In this document: positions 5,133 to 58,936 of the stretch, piece after piece | How positions within the stretch are numbered: the first letter of the stretch is position 1 | Layout of the letters: every line of letters begins with the position of its first letter | IMG/VR virus record: IMGVR_UViG_2974747673_000001 | Coordinates: 66,915-130,914 of that record | From: a virus | Lineage: Duplodnaviria > Heunggongvirae > Uroviricota > Caudoviricetes | Length of the DNA: 64,000 nucleotides | Reading direction: 5' to 3' (one strand) | Made by a program: the position numbers and the translations under genes | Notes under the pieces: model-generated | What the model was told of the DNA's origin: nothing | Databases searched by the model: none | What the model saw: the letters and a program-made list of their open reading frames with translations, nothing else

Positions 5133-6032
5133 TTATTGACAAGGCATTAACAATATCATAAAGTCATCTAAATCAAACACTAATTGAGAAGTCATACTCG
5201 CATTTGCAATTCTTAATGTTAATGTTTTGCCAATCAAACTATTTAGTATCCACTCAAGAATATTCATATCATAGTGTGCCACTAAACTAGGATTAGTTTT
5301 ATCTATATTGACTAGACTGTCTGTACCAAAAGCTATTCTTATAAGAGTAGAGTCAATCTTAATATGTCTATCCTCTGAACAATTTTGAATAGACATATAA
5401 GCCACGAGATTATCATAGTTAAGAGTAAGATAAAATGAATTAGGTACATTTGTTACTCTATATAAATCTATTATATCTGATTTAAAGGCTTGTGATATAG
5501 TTTTAAGCTCTTTGAAACCAGCTAACGACTTAGTAGTTATCCCTATGGTTTGAGTGTCTGTAAAAGCTCTACTAGACACTAATAGTTTGTCTACAAGTAA
5601 TTCCATAGGGTTATCCTCTTTAGGACACAATACACAATAGTTGTTGGTTACAAATACTACACAATCTTCAGTTACTAGAATACCTACATAGCTATCTTTT
5701 CTATCTAGTTTCATTTGACTAATAAAGTCTAAGTTTATCCAATATTTAATATCAGTATTTAAGTTCAAATTTACTATATCTAGGTTTTGGTCTACCAAAG
5801 CATAAGTATCTGTCCAACCAATAGATTGGTTACTTATATAAACTTGATGTTTAGGTTCTACTAATTCTTTGTCTTTTCTCTTTTTGTATACTATTTTTAG
5901 TATTTGTAAAAATCTAGTTATTTTGGTAGTATCATCTAATTTAAAGACAACTTTATCTATTATATTTAGTTCTTCTAATAAAGATTGTATATTTTGATTA
6001 TCTTTAAATAAGTATTTTTGACAATCTTTCAT
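5133..6032 (-). CDS. hypothetical protein (299 aa)
   Basis: Long ORF with no recognisable motifs. Its position next to DNA polymerase leaves an accessory replication role (e.g. clamp-like) possible but unsupported. Confidence 0.45.
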   Translation of the reverse strand: MKDCQKYLFKDNQNIQSLLEELNIIDKVVFKLDDTTKITRFLQILKIVYKKRKDKELVEPKHQVYISNQSIGWTDTYALVDQNLDIVNLNLNTDIKYWINLDFISQMKLDRKDSYVGILVTEDCVVFVTNNYCVLCPKEDNPMELLVDKLLVSSRAFTDTQTIGITTKSLAGFKELKTISQAFKSDIIDLYRVTNVPNSFYLTLNYDNLVAYMSIQNCSEDRHIKIDSTLIRIAFGTDSLVNIDKTNPSLVAHYDMNILEWILNSLIGKTLTLRIANASMTSQLVFDLDDFMILLMPCQ

Positions 6033-6143
6033 AATAGCCCCTTATCTTTTAGTTTTTTAGTTAGCCAATTTACCTTAGCCCACAAGAAAATATTAGATAC
6101 CAAACTACATAATAATAATAAATTAATAAGCATTAAAGTCAAT

Positions 6144-6692
6144 CTATTCATTATCTACTCCTTTCAATTCATTTGTTATTGCTTCCATTAGATTATAACA
6201 ATTATCAATTTCCATATATCTAGGAACACCTTTATAGCTATATAATAAAGTCATTTTTATTGTTTCTATATCCTCATCTATTATAGAATAAAACATCTTA
6301 GATATAAATATTTCTTTATCTTCTAAAGTTTTAAAATAACTTTCTATGTAATAAATACTATTTTCTCTTTTTTGACTTATAAGGAATATAAGTCTACTTA
6401 ATACTTTTTGGTTATCTTTTTCAAAGTCTAAATATAAAGTATATAACTCTGCCATTAAATCATTTATAGTTGTACCTTTAAGAAGTCTATACCAATTTCC
6501 TACTAAATGTACTTTAAGTTCATAATAAAAGTCATCATATCTAGGTATAATCTTAGTTAAGTACTCTAAATCTAGGTATTTAAAATACTTATAATTAGAT
6601 AAATCTAAACTTTCTATTTCTCCTATATCCAACTTATCTATACCTTGTTTTAGCAATTCTTTTAACTCATCTTCCAATATTGTTTTTCTCAT
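6144..6692 (-). CDS. Hypothetical protein. The likely start is the ATG at 6692, preceded by AAAGGAGTG.
   Basis: RBS-supported internal start. A consensus promoter lies at 6724-6752. Confidence 0.4.
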   Translation of the reverse strand: MRKTILEDELKELLKQGIDKLDIGEIESLDLSNYKYFKYLDLEYLTKIIPRYDDFYYELKVHLVGNWYRLLKGTTINDLMAELYTLYLDFEKDNQKVLSRLIFLISQKRENSIYYIESYFKTLEDKEIFISKMFYSIIDEDIETIKMTLLYSYKGVPRYMEIDNCYNLMEAITNELKGVDNE

Positions 6693-6723
6693 ATAATCAC
6701 TCCTTTGTTTTAATTGATAATTC

Positions 6724-6752
6724 ATTATAGCATACACTAGGAATAATGTCAA
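6724..6752 (-). promoter_or_regulatory. sigma-A-type promoter TTGACA-N17-TATAAT (minus strand)
   Basis: Exact consensus hexamers with 17-nt spacer, just downstream of the polA terminator. Confidence 0.55.
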
Positions 6753-6757
6753 TATAA

Positions 6758-6792
6758 ATTTAAAATAAAAAGGATAAATTTCTTTATCCTTT
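6758..6792 (-). terminator. rho-independent terminator after polA
   Basis: AAAGGATAAA-tttc-TTTATCCTTT hairpin plus T-run (minus sense). Confidence 0.55.
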
Positions 6793-9254
6793 TAAAATTC
6801 TCTAAAATCATATACTTGTACTTCTTCTTTTGTTCTCTTAGGTCTTTTAATGTGTTCTGTATTACCCCAAGAAGTACCAATTTCTATATCTATACCTAAA
6901 TAATCATCATTAAGATAACATATAAAACTCTTTTCAAGTATTTCTAATGCAATCTCTTGTGGTACTTCATCTGATACCTCATAACAGAAACTATCATACA
7001 CACTAAACATAAAGTGCATTTTATCCTCTAAACTTTTTTCTTTAATCATTTTATCTGCTTTTATAAGTCCTTCATAAAGTAAAAAGGCATTACTAGATTG
7101 AATAGGAAAGTTAAGTGCTTTTTTCTTTTGCTTTTCAATCTTTTTCTTAGTATTATAATCAGGTTTTTTATCCTCATTAGGTACATCAGGCATCATAAGA
7201 AATGCACCAAAAGGATTAGTGATAAAACCTTGTTCTTTTGCTTTTCTGTGTTGATTGTCAAAATACTTTTTCATTTCAGGATTAGCTCTCATATAGTCAT
7301 CTATTAATTCCTTTGCATCCTCTACTGAAATACCAATATTTTTTGAAAGTCCTTGCTCTCCAGCACCATAAGCTAAACTGAAAGTGGCTGATTTTGTGGC
7401 ATATCTAAGGGTTTTTTCAAATTTTTCTTTTATTGCTCCATAGAAATTTTTATAATCATCATCTGTTTTACAATTATCCCACATCTCTTGAAATTCAGGT
7501 GCTTGAGTTAATACCTTATTTCTCTGCATAAACCAAACATTCATAGAATGTAAGTCCCAACCTTTATGTATAGCCTCACTAAATCTTTTACTGTTTATGA
7601 TAGCAGTCAATATAACTATTTCTGCACTTGAATAATCTGCATAATAAAACTTATGTCCTTCTCTTGCACTAAAGCACTCTTTAAGAGGTGCTAATACTCC
7701 TCTTGCAGGTATTTGTTGTAAATTAGGGGTATTACAAGTACATCTATTTGTAATTGTCCCTAATATGTTATAACTAGGGTATACATAAGGAAATTGTCCT
7801 TTATCTGTGAGTTCTGCTAAAGTAGTACCATCTACTGTCTTTTTATCTTCTTCTGTCTTTTCAACTCCCAAGAAATTATTTAATGCTGTTTTACATTTAC
7901 CAAAATCTAATAAATCTTGTATATGAGGATATTGTTTTACATATTGTTCTAAGTATTTTCTATCTGTTTTGGGAGTCATTAATACCCTTTCTCTCTTTCC
8001 AGTAGTATCATTCAGTTTATATCCAAAACATTTACTAAATATATCTTCTTTTTCTCCTAATATAATAGGTTCATATCTTGATGTACCTTTATCTTCAGGC
8101 TTTAACCCCATAACCTCTACAAATAGAGTTGTTTTCTTATCTGTGGAAGTCATACTAAATTCAGTTTTAGTTATTAAATTTCTACTTTGAATAGGAGTAA
8201 GTTCTATTCCTTTTGTATAATAGTATTTTCCATCTTCTTTTTTGACTGTTTTACCCTTTTTATTACCTTTTTGTGCAGTATTTGAGAGATAATCTACCAT
8301 ACTTTCGTTAAGTATTTTATCATACTCTTTTACTCTATGTAAAGCTTCACATATCTCAATCTCTTTTTTAAATGCTTGTAAAAAATCTTTTTCAGTTCTA
8401 TCTCTTGTTTCTTTAAATTGAATACCTAATTGCTCTACTTTATCATAATCTATTTTTACACCCCTACAAAAAGCTTTTATATAAATATCCATTGTTGCTT
8501 TCTTAGTTTTAATTATTTGTGCTAATTTATTCAATCCTAAGTCCTTTACATAGGCTTTAAACAAGTCCAAACCTATTTCAAAGGCTTGTAATGTACAAAG
8601 TACATCAAAGCAGTTATAGGGTGCTATAATCTCATCAGAAAACAAATCATAAGTGAATTGTTTTACAGATATTCCTAACTCTTTACATATTCTTTTCTTT
8701 TCTTTTTCTAGTTCTTCTTCATAATTTCCATAAGGTAGATAATCTCTTGTGAAATCTTTTAACCCTAAACCTCTATCTTCTTCACTATCTCCAAAATCAT
8801 CACTATCATCTTTTGCTCTATGTGACATTAGCGTATGAAAGAGAATATATGTATCAAAATCCCACTTTACATCTACATTATGTAAGAATTTAATTGTTCC
8901 TATATCATAATAAGCATTATGTAATAATATTTTACACTTAAACTTATTCAAGGAATTAAATACTCTTGCTTTTAAATCTTTATCTAAATCTCTAACTACA
9001 AAGCAATAATTATAATAAATATCATTATGTTTATAACTCAAGGCAAAGTGAGTTATATTATTATTTCTGGGATATAATTTTCTAGCTTCTATATCAAATG
9101 CTAATACTAAATTAGGATTATCTATATTTGCTATAAAATTTTTATACCATTCTGCATAATCATTGACATCTCCTTTAAAACATTTAATATTTTTATAGGT
9201 TGCAAGATAATTACCTATAAGTCCTTTTGTATTACTACTGTTAATCTCTATCAT
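6792..9254 (-). CDS. polA: family A DNA polymerase (Pol I-like) with N-terminal 3'-5' exonuclease domain
   Basis: 820 aa. Exo motif 'AFDIEA'. Pol motif A 'DYSSAEIVIL', motif B 'RYATKSATFSLAYGAG' and a divergent motif C 'VYDSF'. Confidence 0.85.
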   Translation of the reverse strand: MIEINSSNTKGLIGNYLATYKNIKCFKGDVNDYAEWYKNFIANIDNPNLVLAFDIEARKLYPRNNNITHFALSYKHNDIYYNYCFVVRDLDKDLKARVFNSLNKFKCKILLHNAYYDIGTIKFLHNVDVKWDFDTYILFHTLMSHRAKDDSDDFGDSEEDRGLGLKDFTRDYLPYGNYEEELEKEKKRICKELGISVKQFTYDLFSDEIIAPYNCFDVLCTLQAFEIGLDLFKAYVKDLGLNKLAQIIKTKKATMDIYIKAFCRGVKIDYDKVEQLGIQFKETRDRTEKDFLQAFKKEIEICEALHRVKEYDKILNESMVDYLSNTAQKGNKKGKTVKKEDGKYYYTKGIELTPIQSRNLITKTEFSMTSTDKKTTLFVEVMGLKPEDKGTSRYEPIILGEKEDIFSKCFGYKLNDTTGKRERVLMTPKTDRKYLEQYVKQYPHIQDLLDFGKCKTALNNFLGVEKTEEDKKTVDGTTLAELTDKGQFPYVYPSYNILGTITNRCTCNTPNLQQIPARGVLAPLKECFSAREGHKFYYADYSSAEIVILTAIINSKRFSEAIHKGWDLHSMNVWFMQRNKVLTQAPEFQEMWDNCKTDDDYKNFYGAIKEKFEKTLRYATKSATFSLAYGAGEQGLSKNIGISVEDAKELIDDYMRANPEMKKYFDNQHRKAKEQGFITNPFGAFLMMPDVPNEDKKPDYNTKKKIEKQKKKALNFPIQSSNAFLLYEGLIKADKMIKEKSLEDKMHFMFSVYDSFCYEVSDEVPQEIALEILEKSFICYLNDDYLGIDIEIGTSWGNTEHIKRPKRTKEEVQVYDFREF

Positions 9255-10104
9255 AAGCTACACCACACTTCCATTTTAATAATGTTTCAACTAATCTAGT
9301 ATAATCTAAAAATGTTGGTTTGTCAAGTGCAAAATCATAATAAGTATAATTTTTTTCTTTATATTCAATATAATTTTCTGTATGTGTAGCTAATTTAATA
9401 AATCCTAAATAATTATAATCTTTTAATATATAATCTAATATCTTTTCAAAATTTACCTCATACACATCATTTTCTAGTATTAAATCTTGACTATCTATTC
9501 TTTGAATAAGTATATTATTGTTTACTTGAATTACCTCAAAGTTTTCAAAATCTAATAAAGTTTTAGTTACTATTTCTTCTTTAATATCTTTTATTTCTCT
9601 TTTAGTAGTATCTATAATAGAAATTTTATCTTGATATTGAGAATAAGCATACATATCTAAAACTAGATGAGATTCATCTCTATAATCATCTACATTACTA
9701 CCTCTATTACTTAATCTTATAAGTCTATCTACTTCATTACAAGTCAAATAAACTACTCTAATATCAAATTTTGGATTATTTAATAATCTAAGACAAGCAT
9801 AAATATCAATAGCAAATAGATTGATTTTATTCTCATCAAAACAAGTGTAATCAACCCAATTATAATACCCTTGTGGTGCTTTATAACTTGCTATTACATT
9901 ATCACTATCTAAATCTTCTCTATAATCTTTCATAGCTTTAAATATGTGTGTGGTTTTATCAAATTCATTTCTAGGTAAACGAGTAGTATTAGATACTACC
10001 TCGTGAAATTTATTATTACCTCTAAAACTCTCAATAATTGTACTTTTTCCTACCCCACTTTTAGAACAAAAACATATTACTTTAATTTTATCTTTTTCTT
10101 TCAT
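9241..10104 (-). CDS. guanylate kinase-like (d)NMP kinase with C-terminal extension
   Basis: P-loop 'CSKSGVGKST' plus guanylate-kinase signature 'TTRLPR'. Confidence 0.6.
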   Translation of the reverse strand: MKEKDKIKVICFCSKSGVGKSTIIESFRGNNKFHEVVSNTTRLPRNEFDKTTHIFKAMKDYREDLDSDNVIASYKAPQGYYNWVDYTCFDENKINLFAIDIYACLRLLNNPKFDIRVVYLTCNEVDRLIRLSNRGSNVDDYRDESHLVLDMYAYSQYQDKISIIDTTKREIKDIKEEIVTKTLLDFENFEVIQVNNNILIQRIDSQDLILENDVYEVNFEKILDYILKDYNYLGFIKLATHTENYIEYKEKNYTYYDFALDKPTFLDYTRLVETLLKWKCGVAYDRD

Positions 10105-10423
10105 TTTTCTTACTCTCCAACATTTTATCTATTGTCTTTTTGAATTTTAAAGTAACATTAGCTGTTAATTTAATATCAGGTACTGTATAGATATAACTTT
10201 TACCTCTATAACTTACATAGAATAAATATCCATCTTTTATTATTTCTATATAATTTATTAACACTCCTTGAACCACTTGATTATACTCTGTAGCATCCCC
10301 TATATCTTTTGCTTCCTCTTTAAGTTTTAATTGTAATTTTGAAACCTCTAAATTGCACTGTTGTATTCCTAAATGATATACATTATCTGCCTTTTTCTTT
10401 GCTTTCAGCATTTTATCTACCAC
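10088..10423 (-). CDS. hypothetical protein
   Basis: 111 aa ORF. Confidence 0.4.
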   Translation of the reverse strand: MVDKMLKAKKKADNVYHLGIQQCNLEVSKLQLKLKEEAKDIGDATEYNQVVQGVLINYIEIIKDGYLFYVSYRGKSYIYTVPDIKLTANVTLKFKKTIDKMLESKKNERKR

Positions 10424-20138: not shown

Positions 20139-21437
20139 TTAATTATAAGATACCTCTTTTCCTATCTCCCTACAACATATAAATGTAGGGAATCTACAAG
20201 AAAGTTTACCTTGTTTATCCTGTGTTTCTTCAAAATATTGTATCTCTACTACTCTACCTACAATTTCATCTTGATTATTCCAATAATAATCTCTTTGGCT
20301 ATCTGTAAACCCACTACCTACCTTAACTGTATTACCTTTATACTCACATATAATAGCACCAAGAGTATTAGCATATTTCTTTTCTCCTTGTTCTACATCA
20401 ATACACTTTAAATCTACTGTATTAAACTTTTTGAATTTTAATATACTTTTGACTCTCTTACTTTCATATAAGCCATAAATATCATTTGCCATTAAACCCT
20501 CTTGACCTAAAGACACAATTTCATCTAATAACTTAAACACTGTTCCATTTAGTTGTCCTTTGTATAAAACTTTACACACTAATTGATATTCGCTATCCTC
20601 TATACTATCTATAAAATCTCTTCTTCGTATATAAGGTAAATTGTAATCTATTATGTCAAAGATATGATAAGTAATTTTATCTTTTGGTTTTTCTCCTTTA
20701 GTTCTCATAATAGAACTAATTTCTTTATATTGGTCTTTAGAACTTTTATTAGTTGTTATACGAGGTAGTAACTCTCCATCATATATTTTACCACTAGGTA
20801 ACTTTAAACAATTTAAAAAAGTATCTAAGCCTTTTATCTCTACTCCATTACGACTATATGCTTTTGGTGTTCCTGTTCTATTATCTACTATACACCTATT
20901 TCCATCTAGTTTAAGTGTAATATAATAAATCTTACTATGGTCTAGTTTATCTGCTACATTAACATAATTAGTTGCTAACATAGGTTCTATAATAGATATA
21001 CAATTAGGAATAACACTATTTATAGCTTTTATATCTAAGCCTATGGCTAATTCTTTACACATAAATAACTCTAAGAACTCTTTTGATTGTAAATAAGTAT
21101 ATAAATCTCTATAAGACTGTAATACTCTTATATTTTCATCTGTTCCTGTACATTCATCTACTAAATACATCATAATAACCATTAATACATTATCATCTAA
21201 GATTTTGACATCAGAAGTAGATAGTATAGGTTCAATAAATATTTTTTTAATTTTTTTAGTAGACATATTAGTAACTATATTAGGGTTATATAAAAAGTTC
21301 ATTACCTTAATACATTGTGAACTATCTATATCATACCATTCTTGTAATAGTGCTTTTTTATCATTAGTACCTTGAGTTTTTTGAATTAACTCAAGGTACA
21401 TCAATATATTTTGACTAGGCATTATAAATACCTGCAA
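20139..21437 (-). CDS. ATP-dependent DNA ligase
   Basis: Motif I 'KLDGNR', motif III 'YDGEL', motif IV 'EGLMAND', motif V 'LKFKKF'. An alternative start is the ATG at 21422. Confidence 0.85.
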   Translation of the reverse strand: MQVFIMPSQNILMYLELIQKTQGTNDKKALLQEWYDIDSSQCIKVMNFLYNPNIVTNMSTKKIKKIFIEPILSTSDVKILDDNVLMVIMMYLVDECTGTDENIRVLQSYRDLYTYLQSKEFLELFMCKELAIGLDIKAINSVIPNCISIIEPMLATNYVNVADKLDHSKIYYITLKLDGNRCIVDNRTGTPKAYSRNGVEIKGLDTFLNCLKLPSGKIYDGELLPRITTNKSSKDQYKEISSIMRTKGEKPKDKITYHIFDIIDYNLPYIRRRDFIDSIEDSEYQLVCKVLYKGQLNGTVFKLLDEIVSLGQEGLMANDIYGLYESKRVKSILKFKKFNTVDLKCIDVEQGEKKYANTLGAIICEYKGNTVKVGSGFTDSQRDYYWNNQDEIVGRVVEIQYFEETQDKQGKLSCRFPTFICCREIGKEVSYN

Positions 21438-34071: not shown

Positions 34072-34596
34072 TTAATCTTTTAATTTTCTTTTTATTTCTT
34101 CTAATTTTGCCTTAGTTAAACCTACTTTATTATTAGTCTTAACTATATGTTTATCCTTAAAATATTTATTACCATAACACACATCATCATCTAATATTAC
34201 AAACTTTCCAGTATATTTATTTATATCTAACCATTTCTTAATTTCTAGTTCTCTATTAGTTCTAGCACTACCTGTGGTATCTATAACTAAACTGTCTAAT
34301 AAATTTACTCTTTTTACCCAAGAATACTCGTGAAATACAGCATCAAAAAATTCATTAAATTCTTTTGCATGTCCAATACATATTCTCCAACTAGATGATA
34401 TTACTATTTTTACATTATTTTCTAAACACCATATTAGTAATTGATTAAATACACCTATGTTTTCAAAACCCCAATCTGTCATTATATAACTACTATCATA
34501 GCATTTAAAATATATATTTAATCCCATACCACTTCTAGTACCTATGTTATTTACCACTCCATCAAAATCTAAAAATAGTATCTTAGTATTCATCAT
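34072..34596 (-). CDS. HAD-superfamily phosphatase (possible 5'(3')-deoxyribonucleotidase)
   Basis: HAD motif I 'LFLDFDGVVNN'. Confidence 0.5.
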   Translation of the reverse strand: MMNTKILFLDFDGVVNNIGTRSGMGLNIYFKCYDSSYIMTDWGFENIGVFNQLLIWCLENNVKIVISSSWRICIGHAKEFNEFFDAVFHEYSWVKRVNLLDSLVIDTTGSARTNRELEIKKWLDINKYTGKFVILDDDVCYGNKYFKDKHIVKTNNKVGLTKAKLEEIKRKLKD

Positions 34597-40669: not shown

Positions 40670-41422
40670 TCACTCTCCTATATAAACTAATTTTTCAATA
40701 TAATCTTTATTATCTTTAAAAATTGGTATTTCTTTATCTAATACCCAACCTTTATCTGTTTTGATACAACAAGTACCTCTCTTTTCACAAGTTAGAAATG
40801 AATGATAATTTACACCTACATTATCTAACATATCTACTATATCTTTTCCATTCTTATTTTCTAATTCATTATGAGTGAAATAAGCTCTACCTATCATTTG
40901 TATTGCATTTTTAATAGCATCTTGTTGTCGCCAAACAAAATAATTATTGACTTCTTCTTTTTGTAAATTGAATGCTCTACTATCAAATACTGTTAAATCT
41001 TTAGTTTTTTGTCTTAGTAGAGTTCTATATTCTGCACTTCCTTTCATATCATAGCAATAATTCTCAACATTATATCTAAATATAATATTAAAATAAACAC
41101 TAGCCATACTAGATGTAATACTAACAACTTTACTTAAATTATTATCAAACCAAGCACTGCTCTCTAAATTCTCATAATCTATTAACAATAAACTAATCTC
41201 ATCAGATTGAGTATAACCTAGTACACAACCTTGAACATTCTCACATAAGTATTTCAGAGTATCTTGCATAGATTCCATAAATATGTGGTCAAAGGGTTTT
41301 TTCATACCTTTTGTAAATGTATGAAATGCTTTACCATCAATTCTTATAATAACAGGTGTTCTACATATTAAATAATGTCTAGTAACATACTCATACTTTT
41401 TCATTCTTTCATCTAATTTCAT
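40670..41422 (-). CDS. Thg1-like protein (tRNA-His guanylyltransferase family, 3'-5' polymerase)
   Basis: N-terminal 'KYEYVTRHY...CRTPVIIRIDGKAFHTF' matches the Thg1/TLP signature (F.YVR.FE......Y.VVRIDGR.FH.F). Length 250 aa. Confidence 0.7.
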   Translation of the reverse strand: MKLDERMKKYEYVTRHYLICRTPVIIRIDGKAFHTFTKGMKKPFDHIFMESMQDTLKYLCENVQGCVLGYTQSDEISLLLIDYENLESSAWFDNNLSKVVSITSSMASVYFNIIFRYNVENYCYDMKGSAEYRTLLRQKTKDLTVFDSRAFNLQKEEVNNYFVWRQQDAIKNAIQMIGRAYFTHNELENKNGKDIVDMLDNVGVNYHSFLTCEKRGTCCIKTDKGWVLDKEIPIFKDNKDYIEKLVYIGE

Positions 41423-54793: not shown

Positions 54794-55159
54794 ATGGTAG
54801 ATATTGGAAATTTAAAAGATTTTGATATATTTAAAAATGAAATTTTAAGAAATTTAGGATTAGTAGTAAAAACTTTTAAAATTATTTATAATGAAGAAAA
54901 TAAAATACCTATAGTATTCTTAGAATTATATGAGGATAACGAAGAAATTAAAAATAAACTAACTCAAGTTTTAAATACACTAAATATTATAGATGATTTT
55001 TTAACTTTAGGATTGAATATTGAAATTTCTTATGGAAATGAGGATTTAACAATAACTGCTTTAGATGGTAGAGAAATTTTAAATAGAGATTTTGGTAGAT
55101 ATTTGATAACTCATTTATATTCTACTATAATAAATTATAAAGGAGATGTGATAGAATGA
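54794..55159 (+). CDS. hypothetical protein
   Basis: 121 aa. Confidence 0.4.
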   Translation: MVDIGNLKDFDIFKNEILRNLGLVVKTFKIIYNEENKIPIVFLELYEDNEEIKNKLTQVLNTLNIIDDFLTLGLNIEISYGNEDLTITALDGREILNRDFGRYLITHLYSTIINYKGDVIE

Positions 55160-57372
55160 GAACATTATTATTAATGAGAGGAGCTATGGCTTCAGGTAAA
55201 AGTCAATTTATAAAGGATAATAATTTACAACCTTATACTTTATGTGCAGATGACTTCAGAGTTGCAATATGTAATCCTATTTTATCATTAGATGGAGAAT
55301 TTTCTATTAGCCAAAAAAATGATAGACTAGCTTGGAATATGTTGTTACAATGTCTTGAAGAAAGAATGAAAAGAGGGGATTTTACAGTTATAGATGCTAC
55401 TCATTCCACTCAAAAGATGTTAAATAATTATAAGGCATTGGCAGAAATGTATAAGTATACTATATTTGTAAAACAATTAGATGTACCTTTGGAAACTTGT
55501 TTAGAAAGAAATAGAACTAGAGATAAATATAAATTTGTTCCAGAAGAAGCTATAAAGAGATGTCATACTTTAATTAGTCAAACAGAATTATCAAAAGGTG
55601 TAAAAAAAATTGATAAAATAGAAGATATTAATAATTTCTATGTAGATAATATTACAGACAAATATAACAGAGTTATTATAGTTGGAGATGTGCATTCTTG
55701 TAATACAGTTTTAGGACAAATGTTTGATAAAGAGGAATATAGAGAAGATACACTATATGTATTTTTAGGAGATTATTTAGATAGAGGAATAGAACATAAA
55801 GAAACTTTAAAGAGAATGATGTACTTATCTACTTTGAAAAATGTAATATTGCTTGAAGGAAACCACGAATTAAATTTTGGTGGTTGGTGTCAAGGTAGAG
55901 AAATAAAAAGTAAAAAGTTCTTAAATGAAACTCTTAAAATTTTAATAGATGGACTTAATGATGAAGAAATAGAACAATTTAAGTCAAAAGGTAGACAATT
56001 CTATAAAAAACAAAGACAAGCCTATGCTTTTGAATTTGAGGGTAAAAAGTATTTATGTACACATGCAGGATTACCTAGTGTGCCTTTGATGACATATATT
56101 GCAACAGATGATATGATTAAAGGTATAGGAGATTATGAAGATGATATTAGTGGTATCTATGAAAATAATTATGCACTAGGAAAATGTCAAGACTTTATTC
56201 AAATATTTGGACATAGAGCTAATAAATGTACTGAACATTCTATTAATTTAGAGGGTCAAGTAGAATTTGGTGGAAATTTAATGTACTATGTACTTGAAAA
56301 AGGAAAAGAACCTAGATTAGAAAGTATAAAGAATGAAGTTTATGATAAAGAATATTTCAATAGAGAAAGAGAAAAATATAATAGAACAGAAAGTAAGAAT
56401 TTAACTCAAAACGAAGAAGTAAATAAACTTATATTAAGTAAATTAGTAAAAGTAAAACAATGTGAACCTAACTTATTATCTTTGAATTTTGGAGATAATG
56501 TTTTTAGAAAGAAACAATGGAATGATATTACAGTTAAAGCTAGAGGACTTTTTGTAGATAAGGAAACAGGTAATGTATCTATAAGAAGCTACAATAAATT
56601 CTTTAATTATGGAGAACTTAAAGAAACAAGAGATGAGTATTTGATGAAAAATTTACAATATCCATTAATAGCAAAATATAAAGAAAATGGATTTTTAGGT
56701 CTTATGTCCGTAGTGAATGGAGAGGTTGTATTAGCGACAAAATCAACTACACAAGGGGATTATAAAGAGTATTTTCAAGAACTATGGAATAGAGAGAACT
56801 CAAACATAAAGATGTATTTACAAGAATTTGCAAGTAAAGAAAATTGTACTTTCATATTTGAAGTTAAATCTTTTAAAGACAAACATATAATAGATTTTAA
56901 TAAAGAGGAACTTGTCTTATTGGATGTTGTTAAAAACAGTTTAGAGGTCAATGGAATTAATATTGATACAAATTATAGCTCAAAGTGTTTAAATGAGTTT
57001 TATAACTATGTGAGAGCCTTAGATTGCAAAATAATAAGAGTAATAGATACATATGCTATATTAGATGACTTCGAACATTTTAAAGAGTTATTACAAACTT
57101 TTAAATATAATGCTTTTGAAGGATTTGTATTCACAGACCAAAATGGATTTATGTTTAAATGGAAATCTGATTATTATTTAAAGTGGAAGAGTGTAAGATA
57201 CTGTTATCAATATTATTTAAAACATTGGCAAGAAGCATTTCCATTTAGAATCTGTAAAGATAGTTTTGAGATTAATTTTATGAAATGGGTTACAGAGCAA
57301 GACATTAATTGGTTAAAATCTGTCAACTATGTAGATGTAATAAATGAATATAAAAATAATATAGGTAGTTAA
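55156..57372 (+). CDS. trifunctional polynucleotide kinase / metallophosphoesterase 2',3'-phosphatase / Rnl1-type RNA ligase (Pnkp-like RNA repair enzyme)
   Basis: Kinase P-loop 'GAMASGKSQF'. Lambda-phosphatase-type motifs 'GDVHSC', 'GDYLDRG', 'GNHE'. Ligase motif I 'KYKENGFLG' (compare T4 Rnl1 KEDG), motif IV 'FEGFVF', motif V 'FKWKS'. The domain order matches C. thermocellum Pnkp. Confidence 0.7.
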   Translation: MRTLLLMRGAMASGKSQFIKDNNLQPYTLCADDFRVAICNPILSLDGEFSISQKNDRLAWNMLLQCLEERMKRGDFTVIDATHSTQKMLNNYKALAEMYKYTIFVKQLDVPLETCLERNRTRDKYKFVPEEAIKRCHTLISQTELSKGVKKIDKIEDINNFYVDNITDKYNRVIIVGDVHSCNTVLGQMFDKEEYREDTLYVFLGDYLDRGIEHKETLKRMMYLSTLKNVILLEGNHELNFGGWCQGREIKSKKFLNETLKILIDGLNDEEIEQFKSKGRQFYKKQRQAYAFEFEGKKYLCTHAGLPSVPLMTYIATDDMIKGIGDYEDDISGIYENNYALGKCQDFIQIFGHRANKCTEHSINLEGQVEFGGNLMYYVLEKGKEPRLESIKNEVYDKEYFNREREKYNRTESKNLTQNEEVNKLILSKLVKVKQCEPNLLSLNFGDNVFRKKQWNDITVKARGLFVDKETGNVSIRSYNKFFNYGELKETRDEYLMKNLQYPLIAKYKENGFLGLMSVVNGEVVLATKSTTQGDYKEYFQELWNRENSNIKMYLQEFASKENCTFIFEVKSFKDKHIIDFNKEELVLLDVVKNSLEVNGINIDTNYSSKCLNEFYNYVRALDCKIIRVIDTYAILDDFEHFKELLQTFKYNAFEGFVFTDQNGFMFKWKSDYYLKWKSVRYCYQYYLKHWQEAFPFRICKDSFEINFMKWVTEQDINWLKSVNYVDVINEYKNNIGS

Positions 57373-57392
57373 ACACTACCTATATTTATTAT
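57361..57392 (+). terminator. terminator hairpin after the Pnkp-like gene
   Basis: ATAGGTAGT-taaac-ACTACCTAT hairpin overlapping the stop, followed by a weak T-run. Confidence 0.4.
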
Positions 57393-57424
57393 AAAACATT
57401 AGACTAGCATTTAGGAGTGTTATA

Positions 57425-57604
57425 ATGAGTAAATACTTAGAATGGTTATGGATAAATGGACTTATATTAGTAGGAAAGGCTATAAATGGAAAGATATTTA
57501 CAGAGGAAGATATTAGACTATATAAGGAAATAAAGGAACAGCATTTATTTTTAACAAATAGTGAAATTAGATTAATAGAAAAACATTTAAAGGAGGTAAA
57601 ATGA
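57425..57604 (+). CDS. hypothetical small protein (59 aa)
   Basis: ATG-to-TGA frame not in the ORF track because it is under 60 aa. Sits between the Pnkp terminator and the tRNA-array promoter. Confidence 0.25.
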   Translation: MSKYLEWLWINGLILVGKAINGKIFTEEDIRLYKEIKEQHLFLTNSEIRLIEKHLKEVK

Positions 57605-57724
57605 ATTATTGGTTTAGTGAGAATAAAAGATTAAAAGGAGAACCTTTATAAAAATTTTTTATTAATAATACCAACATAAAATAATAAAAATATAGAATTT
57701 TTTGATAAAATAGAATAAAATCAC

Positions 57725-57753
57725 TTGACAAAGTTAATTTTGTATGTTATACT
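57725..57753 (+). promoter_or_regulatory. sigma-A-type promoter (TTGACA-N17-TATACT) driving the non-coding leader and tRNA array
   Basis: -35 at 57725-57730 and -10 at 57748-57753. Nearly identical to the minus-strand promoter at 35787-35815. Confidence 0.6.
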
Positions 57754-58279
57754 TATTTTGTAAGATGAAAGAGCTGATTTAGTCGCTAAAGTATATCTTA
57801 CATTTATGGAATACACCAAAACTTTTGGCTGTGGAAGTTGTGATGACACACTCTTTCCTTGTAAGTTCGTGAGAGGTTTCAGACAGCAAGTGATGAGGTA
57901 GTTAGCTAACAAGGTTTGGAACTTACCCTTGCTAATACACCCTTGTCCAATTAAACTTAAAAACGAGTTTTAGGATTTTGACTCTTAAAGATATATCTTA
58001 TTAAAAGCCTTTAAAAATAAAATCAGTTACTCTTTATCATAAAAGAGCCTTTTAAACAGTTCTAGTTTTAGGTTAATAAACGAACTCTTATATAGGTTTA
58101 TCTCTCATTTACCCTATATACTTAAAAATGAGAGGTTAAATAGATACTCAACTAAAAGATTGTACTAAGTTTCCATTGTAGATTTTGAGTAAGATTACAC
58201 ATTATAATATTCGCCTCCTTTCAGAATATAAATGAGTTGAGTATCTATTTAATACTAAAAAGAAGTAGTATTTTATATG
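57754..58279 (+). ncRNA. ~520 nt non-coding transcribed leader or candidate structured RNA upstream of the tRNA array
   Basis: No credible ORF. Lies downstream of the strong promoter. Locally elevated GC (57830-57950). 8-bp helix GTAAGTTC/GAACTTAC (57864-71 / 57925-32). Palindrome GTTAGCTAAC (57905-14). 15-bp inverted repeat AAATAGATACTCAAC/GTTGAGTATCTATTT (58139-53 / 58236-50). Confidence 0.3.
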
Positions 58280-58353
58280 GTGGGAGTAGTGTAATGGTAG
58301 CACAACAGTTTGTGGCACTGTTAGATTGGTTTCAAATACCAACTCTCACACCA
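58280..58353 (+). tRNA. tRNA-His (anticodon GTG) with A73 discriminator, encoded CCA and a genomic G at -1
   Basis: Hand-folded cloverleaf. Acceptor GTGGGAG/CTCTCAC, D stem GTGT/GCAC, anticodon stem ACAGT/ACTGT with loop TTGTGGC, T arm TTGGT-TTCAAAT-ACCAA. Confidence 0.7.
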
Positions 58354-58362
58354 AAACCTTAT

Positions 58363-58436
58363 TGCAGAGTGGAGGAAAAGTACCTCACTAGGCTCATTCC
58401 CTAGAGAAGTGGGAGCATTACCCACCTCTGCCACCA
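58363..58436 (+). tRNA. tRNA with CAT anticodon (Met, fMet or Ile2) and a non-canonical T loop
   Basis: Acceptor TGCAGAG/CTCTGCC with a 1-72 mismatch. D stem GAGG/CCTC. Anticodon stem CTAGG/CCTAG with loop CTCATTC. T stem GTGGG/CCCAC with loop AGCATTA. CCA encoded. Confidence 0.5.
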
Positions 58437-58441
58437 AATAT

Positions 58442-58515
58442 GTACTCTTGACCGATTAGTTAGGTACTTGTCTGCAAAACAAGGTAAATTAGTGCAATTC
58501 TAATAGGGTACTCCA
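58442..58515 (+). tRNA. tRNA-Cys (GCA)
   Basis: Acceptor GTACTCT/AGGGTAC. Anticodon stem CTTGT/ACAAG with loop CTGCAAA. T stem ATTAG/CTAAT with unusual loop TGCAATT. CCA encoded. Confidence 0.55.
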
Positions 58516-58521
58516 AAATAT

Positions 58522-58610
58522 GTGTAGATATGCAAATTGGTGAAGCAAACAGACTGTAAATCTGTTCCCTCGTGGTAAACATGTAGGTTCAAATCCTACT
58601 CTACACACCA
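58522..58610 (+). tRNA. tRNA-Tyr (GTA), type II with long variable arm
   Basis: Perfect acceptor GTGTAGA/TCTACAC. Anticodon stem ACAGA/TCTGT with loop CTGTAAA. 17-nt variable region. T arm GTAGG-TTCAAAT-CCTAC. CCA encoded. Confidence 0.65.
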
Positions 58611-58613
58611 AAT

Positions 58614-58700
58614 AGAGAGTTTGCTTAATTGGTTAAAGCACCAGTCTTGAAAACTGGAGTCGTAACAGACATTAGGGTTCGAGTCCCTAACTCTCTGCCA
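58614..58700 (+). tRNA. tRNA-Ser (TGA), type II
   Basis: Acceptor AGAGAGT/ACTCTCT. D stem GCTT/AAGC. Anticodon stem CCAGT/ACTGG with loop CTTGAAA. Variable hairpin GTC..GAC. T arm TAGGG-TTCGAGT-CCCTA. CCA encoded. Confidence 0.7.
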
Positions 58701-58706
58701 ACATAT

Positions 58707-58782
58707 CTGTGGGTAGTTCAGTTGGTAGAACTCTTGTTTTGGGAACAAGAAGTCGGGAGTTCAAATCTCTCCCCACAGACCA
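58707..58782 (+). tRNA. tRNA-Pro (TGG)
   Basis: Acceptor CTGTGGG/CCCACAG. D stem GTTC/GAAC. Anticodon stem CTTGT/ACAAG with loop TTTGGGA. T arm GGGAG-TTCAAAT-CTCTC. CCA encoded. Confidence 0.7.
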
Positions 58783-58788
58783 TAATAT

Positions 58789-58936
58789 GCCATATTACCT
58801 CAAAGGTAGAGGGTCTATAAGTAGAAATAAGAGATGTGGGTTCGAGTCCTACTTTAAACTTGAGGGTTTAAATAGCTTAATTGGTAAAAGCCTTGTGAAT
58901 TATAGAAAGGTATCAGTTCAAGTCTGATATATGGCA
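58789..58936 (+). tRNA. Split or interleaved tRNA-like locus. Outer tRNA halves are separated by an 83-nt insert that carries a T arm plus 3' acceptor, followed by a 5' acceptor plus D arm of a second tRNA-like unit.
   Basis: Outer unit: acceptor GCCATAT (58789-95) pairs with ATATGGC (58929-35); D arm CCTC-AAAGGTA-GAGG; anticodon stem TCTAT (58814-18) pairs with ATAGA (58902-06); T arm ATCAG-TTCAAGT-CTGAT. Insert: GTGGG-TTCGAGT-CCTAC + TTTAAAC (58836-59), then GTTTAAA-TA-GCTT-AATTGGTAA-AAGC (58866-91). No CCA is encoded. Confidence 0.35.

Follow-up and report, generated by a model that had tools for sequence, protein, structure and literature searches.

Several systems that heal and seal broken RNA have been described. 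In the bacterial Pnkp-Hen1 system, a P-loop 5′-OH kinase, a binuclear metallophosphoesterase, and a ligase follow one another, and the ligase of the C. thermocellum enzyme (CthPnkp) self-adenylylates but requires the N-terminal half of Hen1 for sealing; Hen1 contacts a helical insert peculiar to this ligase (PMC3675462). The Pnkp1-Rnl-Hen1 system of Capnocytophaga gingivalis consists of three proteins, and Hen1 is required. In anti-PrrC tRNA repair, phage T4 uses two separate proteins, Pnkp and Rnl1, and the fungal and plant enzyme Trl1 carries its ligase (LIG), kinase (KIN), and cyclic phosphodiesterase (CPD) domains in the order LIG-KIN-CPD. Here, we analyzed a 64,000-nucleotide (nt) stretch of phage DNA (IMG/VR record IMGVR_UViG_2974747673_000001; hereafter, the window), which corresponds to the last 64 kb of the Fusobacterium phage Fnu1 record and contains an open reading frame (ORF) for a protein of 738 amino acid residues (aa). 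We consider this protein, with a probability of about 70%, to be an autonomous, Hen1-independent, trifunctional RNA heal-and-seal enzyme that likely restores nuclease-cut tRNAs during infection.

Domain architecture and active-site conservation

The gene and its predicted domains are given below.

55156..57372, plus strand: ORF of the trifunctional kinase/metallophosphoesterase/RNA ligase (Pfam, PHROG, tblastn, and motif positions)
55156..55650, plus strand: 5′-OH polynucleotide kinase domain, residues ~1–165 (P-loop G9–S16; D32, R35, R122)
55663..56340, plus strand: binuclear metallophosphoesterase domain (2′,3′-phosphatase/cyclic phosphodiesterase (CPDase)), residues ~170–395 (D178, H180, D206, R210, N236, H237, H303, H353)
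56437..57369, plus strand: ATP-dependent RNA ligase domain, residues ~428–738 (motif I K509-E-N-G, Ia K529, III E569, IIIa H577, IV E655-G656, V K668/K670)

In the 738-aa protein, a healing half of the bacterial Pnkp kind is joined to a sealing half from the Rnl1/Trl1-LIG lineage. All seven motifs named in the original prediction, which was made from the DNA letters alone, occurred once each and in the order kinase, metallophosphoesterase, and ligase: GAMASGKS at residues 9–16, GDVHS at 177–181, GDYLDRG at 205–211, GNHE at 235–238, KENG at 509–512, EGFVF at 655–659, and KWK at 668–670. Pfam matches above the gathering score were obtained for AAA_33 (residues 4–135, 5e-16) and Metallophos (residues 172–316, 2e-12), and RNA_lig_T4_1 matched residues 461–674 (2.4e-28; 100 bits against a cut-off of 28.3). 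The last match places the C-terminal half in the Rnl1 superfamily and not among Pnkp-type ligases, as had been claimed, and a check for a non-ligase family in this half was negative. At the level of the whole protein, PHROG 8238 ('RNA ligase') was matched end to end (1e-175).

An AlphaFold2 model built on 24 homologues, with a mean predicted local distance difference test (pLDDT) value of 89.6, was compared with the PDB by Foldseek. The N-terminal part resembled the CthPnkp kinase domain, with template modeling (TM) scores of 0.72–0.76, and the central part resembled the CthPnkp phosphatase domain (4j6o) and lambda phosphatase. For the ligase part, the best matches were the fungal Trl1 ligase domains 9qw7, 6n0t, and 6n67 (E ~1e-14, TM 0.60–0.66 on the target), followed by T4 Rnl1 (~3e-11). 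Foldseek thus divided the protein cleanly into three parts, each of which had RNA-repair enzymes as its best structural matches, and the order of the domains is CthPnkp-like. A profile of 12 family members matched the Trl1-LIG of C. glabrata (5.8e-28) and of Chaetomium (5e-19) along the whole LIG domain with its helical C-terminal subdomain, and T4 Rnl1 (2e-14) in the nucleotidyltransferase core only (468–672). The relationship of the ligase was visible only with the isolated domain or the family profile; a single-sequence PDB search with the whole protein returned only PP1/PP2A and the CthPnkp kinase.

Motifs I, Ia, III, IIIa, IV, and V of the Rnl1-family covalent nucleotidyltransferases and an Rnl1-like N-terminal subdomain were present. 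Appended to this Rnl1-like adenylyltransferase is an all-helical C-domain of the Trl1-LIG (Rnl6) type, which follows motif V and carries K678-x-x-R681. The tRNA-specific C-domain of T4 Rnl1 had no match in the protein: the structural alignment covered 243/367 residues and stopped at the nucleotidyltransferase core, and the C-terminus of T2 Rnl1 stayed unaligned in a MAFFT comparison with the family.

The domain order, the P-loop 5′-OH kinase, and the binuclear metallophosphoesterase are common to bacterial Pnkp and the phage protein. However, the phage protein is ~130 aa shorter, its adenylyltransferase is not of the Rnl4 type with a Hen1-binding helical insert, and the NCBIfam Pnkp equivalog TIGR04075 aligned only to the kinase-phosphatase part (residues 3–307), with 87 bits against a cut-off of 750. 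Compared with Trl1, the domain order is reversed (KIN-phosphatase-LIG), a metallophosphoesterase takes the place of the 2H cyclic phosphodiesterase in end healing, the kinase resembles that of CthPnkp and not Trl1-KIN, and the protein is prokaryotic/viral. T4 Pnkp has an HAD (DxDxT) acyl-phosphatase, whereas the phage protein has a metallophosphoesterase and holds in one polypeptide what is divided between two proteins in T4 and among three in C. gingivalis.

Active-site conservation was analyzed in an alignment of 140 full-length representatives of 50%-identity clusters, whose median identity to the query was 34%. K15, D32, and R35 of the kinase were invariant. In the phosphatase, D178, D206, R210, H303, and H353 were each retained in 139/140 sequences, N236 in 138/140, and H237 in 137/140; position 180 was H in 130/140, Q in 9/140, and S in 1/140. 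In the ligase, R463, G464, K481, K509, G512, K529, E569, H577, E655, G656, K668, and K670 were present in 140/140, and the conservation of the KENG lysine, on which the ligase assignment had been made to depend, was thus complete. The phosphatase residues pair one-to-one with the set found experimentally to be essential in CthPnkp, D187/H189/D233/R237/N263/H264/H323/H376 (PMC3675462), so that the D-H-D-R-N-H-H-H binuclear metallophosphoesterase set of bacterial Pnkp is complete. These results indicate that the active sites of all three modules are intact, as originally proposed. In some homologues (P0011–P0013 (1096 aa), P0156, P0253, P0263, and P0291), an intein (Hom_end + LAGLIDADG_3) was located within the kinase P-loop (GSGK/intein/T), and its insertion there is consistent with a strong functional constraint on this site.

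Hen1 and the distribution of the family

The genome was examined for partners of the enzyme. Neither Hen1 nor another methyltransferase was found within ±10 kb of the gene in the Fnu1/FNU2/FNU3 annotation and by Pfam. The Pfam-annotated genes of FNU2/FNU3, examined over ~85 kb that include the window, and ten large window ORFs scanned directly with Pfam likewise yielded no Hen1. At nine other loci of the family, among them those of Veillonella, a 65%-identical metagenomic phage, Twort, Goe11, phiKSUM, A9, KKP_3916, and S-CoN_Ph5, neither Hen1 nor another methyltransferase lay beside the homologue. The proposal that the enzyme has no Hen1 partner was therefore borne out at the locus, among the window's Pfam-annotated genes, and at the distant loci. 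T4 Rnl1 and Trl1-LIG need no partner for ligation; an autonomous heal-and-seal enzyme is therefore the simplest inference, and because no Hen1 partner is present, 2′-O-methyl 'immunization' of the junction would not be expected. Tpt1/KptA, RtcB, and 2H phosphoesterase were likewise not found among the window's Pfam-annotated genes, where many small ORFs carry no annotation.

The ATG of the 738-aa ORF overlaps the stop codon of the preceding 121-aa ORF by 4 nt. By tblastn, the product was 100% identical over its full length to Fnu1 gp169 and to the FNU2 and FNU3 proteins; the Fnu1 counterpart gene (MK554696/NC_055035) lies at 122070–124283. In the deposited annotation, the gene is labeled 'RNA ligase' or 'metallophosphoesterase'. 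Near the locus, the deposited Fnu1 annotation gives small ORFs implausible names, such as 'TonB-dependent receptor', 'heparinase', and 'glycosyltransferase'.

The family is large. The tblastn search found homologues in 382 phage records, 112 of them at a coverage of at least 80%, including Staphylococcus Twort-like phages and Sextaecvirus, Bacillus SPbeta-like phages, Brochothrix phage A9, and an Alicyclobacillus phage. In RefSeq/GenBank phage records, the members are labeled 'RNA ligase', 'tRNA ligase', or hypothetical. An exhaustive search of representative sequences yielded 789 clusters at E ≤ 1e-30; the best 150 of these 789 all had E ≤ 2e-99, and 139 of the 150 were 650–830 aa long, the full three-domain length. 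A repeated profile search added little, as it was dominated by near-identical Veillonella sequences. The original prediction had regarded the architecture as not a described phage system. This does not hold for its occurrence, which was already cataloged as PHROG 8238 and is seen in the 112 phage records, whereas it agrees with the searchable literature, in which no biochemical or genetic study of the family was found; the architecture may have been described earlier in silico. The family is thus large, cataloged, and named but biochemically unstudied, and the 738-aa protein is not unique.

The largest cluster, with 6,461 member sequences, represents a chromosomal Veillonella gene. This gene stands alone between rpsT and the adenine deaminase gene, near polA, coaE, nusA-infB, and pnp. 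A DUF2828 Ro-like gene lies 5.5 kb from it, and pnp is the second gene beyond the Ro-like gene (~0.9 kb).

In Brochothrix phage A9 (L011), genes for ribose-phosphate pyrophosphokinase and nicotinamide phosphoribosyltransferase (5418–7834) directly precede the homologue (8001–10196). We take this gene pair to be an NAD-reconstitution anti-defense module, and the A9 homologue may lie in a counter-defense gene neighborhood.

tRNA locus, candidate noncoding RNAs, and other RNA-centered genes

The features around the 738-aa ORF, including the tRNA locus downstream of it, are as follows.

55103..55131, plus strand: promoter-like site TTGATA-17-TATAAT (11/12, consensus match only), inside the preceding ORF and just upstream of the 738-aa ORF
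57358..57386, unstranded: 12-bp hairpin over the stop codon of the ligase gene, scored as terminator-like for the minus strand
57425..57604, plus strand: 59-aa ORF between the ligase gene and the tRNA locus, with no PHROG or Pfam match
57725..57753, plus strand: sigma-70-like promoter with extended −10, TTGACA-17-TG-TATACT (11/12, consensus match), invariant in five diverged relatives
57786..58251, plus strand: conserved noncoding leader, a candidate structured RNA of ~500 nt (conservation, covariation)
58280–58353, plus strand: tRNA-His GUG, with G-1 encoded at 58279 and discriminator A73
58363–58436, plus strand: degenerate tRNA-like CAU (ARAGORN only at a relaxed threshold; no Rfam call)
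58442–58515, plus strand: tRNA-Cys GCA
58522–58610, plus strand: tRNA-Tyr GUA
58614–58700, plus strand: tRNA-Ser UGA
58707–58782, plus strand: tRNA-Pro UGG
58789..58936, plus strand: composite tRNA-like/Y-RNA-like element (sub-threshold Rfam YrlA match, pairing, and minimum-free-energy fold)

Five tRNAs (His-GUG, Cys-GCA, Tyr-GUA, Ser-UGA, and Pro-UGG) were identified at 58280–58782 by both ARAGORN and Rfam; the CAU tRNA-like sequence among them is without the canonical D-loop GG and T-loop TTC. The ligase gene had been described as lying directly upstream of a tRNA array with its own promoter. A strong promoter-like site was indeed present 527 nt upstream of the first tRNA, but the stop codon of the ligase gene is 907 nt away from tRNA-His, and the 59-aa ORF and ~675 nt of conserved noncoding sequence lie between them. 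Across the region as a whole, promoter-like sites showed no enrichment (37, with 31 ± 5 expected). The hairpin over the ligase-gene stop codon is a possible bidirectional terminator.

In close relatives, whose enzymes are 87–92% identical, the tRNA locus was syntenic and located 1.4–3 kb downstream, and its content varied from none (L020) to Pro only, His and Pro, and up to six tRNAs. At eight distant loci of the family, no tRNA was found within ±8–10 kb except tRNA-Met, 6 kb upstream in Twort. A family-wide tRNA linkage was rejected on these numbers (0–1 tRNAs at the eight distant loci and 0–6 in the close relatives), and the idea that the ligase gene and the tRNA array form a functional module did not survive, as the linkage is kept in close Fnu1-like relatives only. 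The adjacency is a lineage-specific pairing of two accessory loci with their own promoters and is neither an operon nor a conserved module. A phage would nevertheless plausibly benefit from having both replacement tRNAs and a means of repair (cf. PMC10264068).

The leader was 81–85% identical in relatives, including one without tRNAs, and its counterpart in relative L019 contained no plus-strand ORF of at least 30 aa. RNAalifold predicted 13 helices with 97.9% of cells paired, among them a 17-bp long-range helix (58137–58153 with 58235–58251). Eight pairs showed compensatory changes, compared with 2.5 ± 1.2 in shuffles (0/500 reached 8) and 0 in slid controls; the structure is based on five sequences and was derived from the same alignment as that used for the covariation counts. 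Rfam gave no family for the leader and only noise at E ≤ 10; thus, the leader is not ROOL or GOLLD as modeled. It shares its genomic context with these RNAs: the large RNAs GOLLD and ROOL have likewise been reported from phages, beside tRNAs (PMC5737381). The sequence suggests that the leader is a candidate new large phage noncoding RNA (ncRNA).

Directly 3′ of tRNA-Pro, the composite element gave no call with standard tRNA finders. Its 3′ end, position 58936, is also the end of the region delimited in the original prediction. The outer cloverleaf consists of an acceptor (58789–95/58929–35), a D arm, and a T arm; its anticodon loop is replaced by a further T arm, a closed 7-bp acceptor-like hairpin (58853–59/58866–72), and a D arm. 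Rfam matched YrlA (RF02553) at the same position in Fnu1, L017, and L019 with 31–32 bits, below the gathering score of 69, and no Ro-binding helix was identified in 58789–58936. The proposed pairs were formed at 39/39 positions in Fnu1 and 38/39 in three variants, and the unconstrained minimum-free-energy fold holds the same helices, whereas RNAalifold, run on the four variants, differed in part of the inner fold; so small a set leaves the inner structure tentative and the support from covariation thin. The element was absent in L018 and L021. An exact-match search in IMG/VR was empty, a gapped pattern retrieved only the same relatives, and a metagenome scan found three more variants among many unrelated tandem tRNAs.

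Elsewhere in the window, the following genes were found.

17777..19333, minus strand: Ro60/Rsr-like protein (DUF2828 + DUF7788; TROVE + vWA fold) (Pfam; phrog_850 'RNA-binding protein'; AlphaFold2 pLDDT 88)
34072..34596, minus strand: HAD_SAK_2 phosphatase ('Swiss Army Knife' RNA-repair-associated HAD domain) (Pfam PF18143, 3e-21)
40670..41422, minus strand: Thg1-family protein (tRNA-His guanylyltransferase/3′-5′ polymerase) (Pfam Thg1, 6e-31)
6792–9254, minus strand: family A DNA polymerase
16416–17516, minus strand: C5 cytosine methyltransferase
20139–21437, minus strand: ATP-dependent DNA ligase

The predicted structure of the Ro-like protein contains the TROVE HEAT-repeat ring and the vWA/MIDAS domain. 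Its top nine Foldseek matches were all Ro60/Rsr/TROVE proteins, including D. radiodurans Rsr, and extended over the full length (~580 columns; E values from 1e-7 to 3e-6; highest TM 0.56); no PDB match was obtained at the sequence level. Members of this family are found in 703 phage records, with the label 'Ro-like' in mycobacteriophages; both the Ro-like protein and the repair enzyme are encoded in Fnu1 and in Staphylococcus Sextaecvirus phages. By analogy, the Ro-like protein is a possible partner of the Y-like RNA. A Ro60-fold protein, a tRNA-mimicking RNA, and an RNA repair enzyme also occur in one genome where Ro60/Rsr-Y RNA (YrlA) ribonucleoproteins are found beside RtcB repair operons. 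In contrast to those, the window protein belongs to the divergent DUF2828/DUF7788 family and its pairing with the RNA is putative; the RNA is sub-threshold for YrlA and embedded in an outer tRNA-like cloverleaf, and the protein and RNA genes are 36–40 kb apart.

A need for Thg1 fits the G-1 encoded opposite the eukaryote-like A73 in the phage tRNA-His, and this sequence feature suggests Thg1-dependent G-1 maintenance of that tRNA. The HAD_SAK_2 protein, judging from its domain match, is a potential second RNA 3′-end phosphatase in the same phage. The view of the enzyme as a self-contained toolkit is overstated: the window also encodes the Ro60-like protein, Thg1, and HAD_SAK_2, all far from the locus.

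Outside the window, ~2.8 kb beyond its left end, the FNU2 genome carries a STIV_B116-like/DUF1874 gene of the AcrIII-1 ring-nuclease family (L066 22068–22391), and Fnu1 is among the reported DUF1874 carriers (bioRxiv 10.1101/778746). With this gene, the phage may also counter type III CRISPR signaling that activates RNases.

Proposed pathway, alternative explanations, and implications

From the domain identities, the intact and conserved active sites, the lack of Hen1, and the distribution, we infer the activities of the enzyme, its RNA substrates, and its role in counter-defense. In the proposed pathway, the N-terminal P-loop kinase would phosphorylate the 5′-OH end. The binuclear phosphoesterase, of the Mn/Ni type, would open the cyclic phosphate and most likely remove the resulting monoester, leaving 2′-OH/3′-OH. 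The ligase would then self-adenylylate on K509, pass the AMP to the 5′-PO4 end, and seal the break. During infection, the enzyme would repair tRNAs, and possibly further RNAs, that host nucleases have cut, alongside the phage's replacement tRNAs. Counter-defense is the best-supported guess for the role by analogy with the T4 precedent and from the phage setting; the protein itself matched no defense-system model in PADLOC. The role against anticodon nucleases put forward in the original prediction is plausible. The chromosomal Veillonella copy indicates that the enzyme also serves cells, where it plausibly acts against toxin-inflicted RNA damage.

Several points weigh against this interpretation. 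The linkage to tRNAs is not conserved outside close relatives, and no host anticodon nuclease was identified. The most populous branch of the family is the Veillonella gene in its housekeeping context; therefore, the ancestral role need not be anti-defense. RNA rather than DNA as the substrate, and the activity of any family member, are predictions from sequence. The end chemistry is uncertain because Trl1-LIG, to which the ligase is slightly nearer, prefers 2′-PO4 ends. This preference rests on the C-domain arginines R334 and R337 (PMC12440814), and the RxxR motif has been described as unique to the 'Rnl6' clade (PMC6379707). In a HMMER alignment, R334/R337 fell on K678 (K in 138/140) and R681 (R in 137/140). 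A pathway like that of Trl1 can accordingly be envisaged, in which the phosphoesterase would act mainly as a CPDase to leave 3′-OH/2′-PO4 and an Rnl6-like ligase would make a 2′-phosphorylated junction needing a Tpt1/KptA-type 2′-phosphotransferase. We regard it as rather unlikely. Wild-type CthPnkp converts the cyclic phosphate to a 2′-phosphomonoester and removes it, giving ends sealable by T4 Rnl1, whereas its H189D variant halts at 2′-PO4, feeding yeast Trl1 instead (PMC1920235). The equivalent H180 is kept in 130/140 homologues, which favors full phosphate removal and a normal 3′-5′ junction, and no Tpt1/KptA occurs among the window's Pfam-annotated genes. Furthermore, MAFFT shifted the register of the RxxR region, and in T2/T4 Rnl1, which rejects 2′-PO4 ends, the ungapped positions equivalent to K678/R681 are occupied by H and K; no 2′-PO4 specificity was therefore assigned from the KxxR motif.

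The enzyme might instead have a housekeeping or processing function, maturing or maintaining phage tRNA transcripts, the Y-like RNA, the leader RNA, or stress-damaged RNAs, perhaps with the Ro-like protein. The stand-alone Veillonella gene with a Ro-like gene nearby, the phages that hold both the enzyme and the Ro-like protein, and the synteny with the ncRNA/tRNA locus in Fnu1-like phages speak for such a function, which we nonetheless find unlikely: bacterial tRNA maturation requires no ligation, most family members have no nearby tRNA or ncRNA locus, the close relative L020 keeps the enzyme gene with zero tRNAs, and the Ro-like family is far wider spread than the ligase family. A Pnkp/Hen1-type system whose partner was missed would have a ligase that only self-adenylylates and needs an activator or methyltransferase encoded elsewhere. 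The CthPnkp domain order and the TIGR04075 match are in line with it, and true Pnkp+Hen1 pairs occur in phages, e.g., in jumbo phage XacN1 (PMC5852040). We consider this very improbable for the 738-aa enzyme, whose Hen1-less form is a different solution from that of XacN1. It is equally improbable that the protein takes no part in RNA repair and serves in DNA-end processing, as a protein phosphatase/kinase, or as a tail-fiber attachment factor like T4 gp63. The PHROG matches did include 'NinI-like serine-threonine phosphatase' and 'RNA ligase and tail fiber protein attachment catalyst', the phosphatase had PP1/PP2A matches at the sequence level, and CthPnkp and T4 Pnkp also process DNA ends. 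However, RNA-repair enzymes were the best structural matches throughout, the strict joint conservation of the three active sites within a single polypeptide is in keeping with coupled healing and sealing, and a separate ATP-dependent DNA ligase is encoded in the window. An autonomous heal-and-seal enzyme for RNA thus remains our preferred interpretation.

RNA-cleaving immunity, including anticodon nucleases, HEPN RNases of type III/VI CRISPR, retron/PARIS-type effectors, and ribotoxins of toxin-antitoxin systems, is now regarded as a major antiphage strategy. To our knowledge, T4 Pnkp and Rnl1 are the only repair answer of a phage worked out so far, and this family would be a second solution, in one polypeptide. 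Its members occur widely in phages that infect Gram-positive pathogens (Staphylococcus Twort-like and 6ec-like; Bacillus SPbeta-like) or anaerobes of the mouth and gut, and several of these phages are candidates for therapy. The Pnkp healing cassette is coupled to two ligase clades, Rnl4 with Hen1 and the Rnl1/Rnl6-like ligase seen here, and the enzyme is a possible single-enzyme reagent for repairing or ligating RNA>p/5′-OH fragments.

The most interesting angle is the Trl1-like (Rnl6-like) ligase module. So far, the Rnl6 clade comprises the fungal enzymes from which it was defined and candidates from kinetoplastids. It is doubtful, but conceivable, that the phage module is a genuine prokaryotic/viral member of this clade and that the Fnu1 enzyme works within a broader RNA-maintenance set. 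If so, it would be the first Rnl6 outside eukaryotes, pointing to the stock behind the eukaryotic tRNA-splicing ligase, and the set in Fnu1 would comprise the Ro-like protein and Y-like tRNA mimic, Thg1, the HAD_SAK phosphatase, the replacement tRNAs, and the new ~500-nt ncRNA. If K678-x-x-R681 reads 2′-PO4, bacteria and phages would make 2′-phosphorylated junctions, the long-missing substrate of bacterial Tpt1/KptA. The Trl1-like ligase opens two questions to direct test: where the eukaryotic tRNA ligase came from and what bacterial Tpt1 is for.

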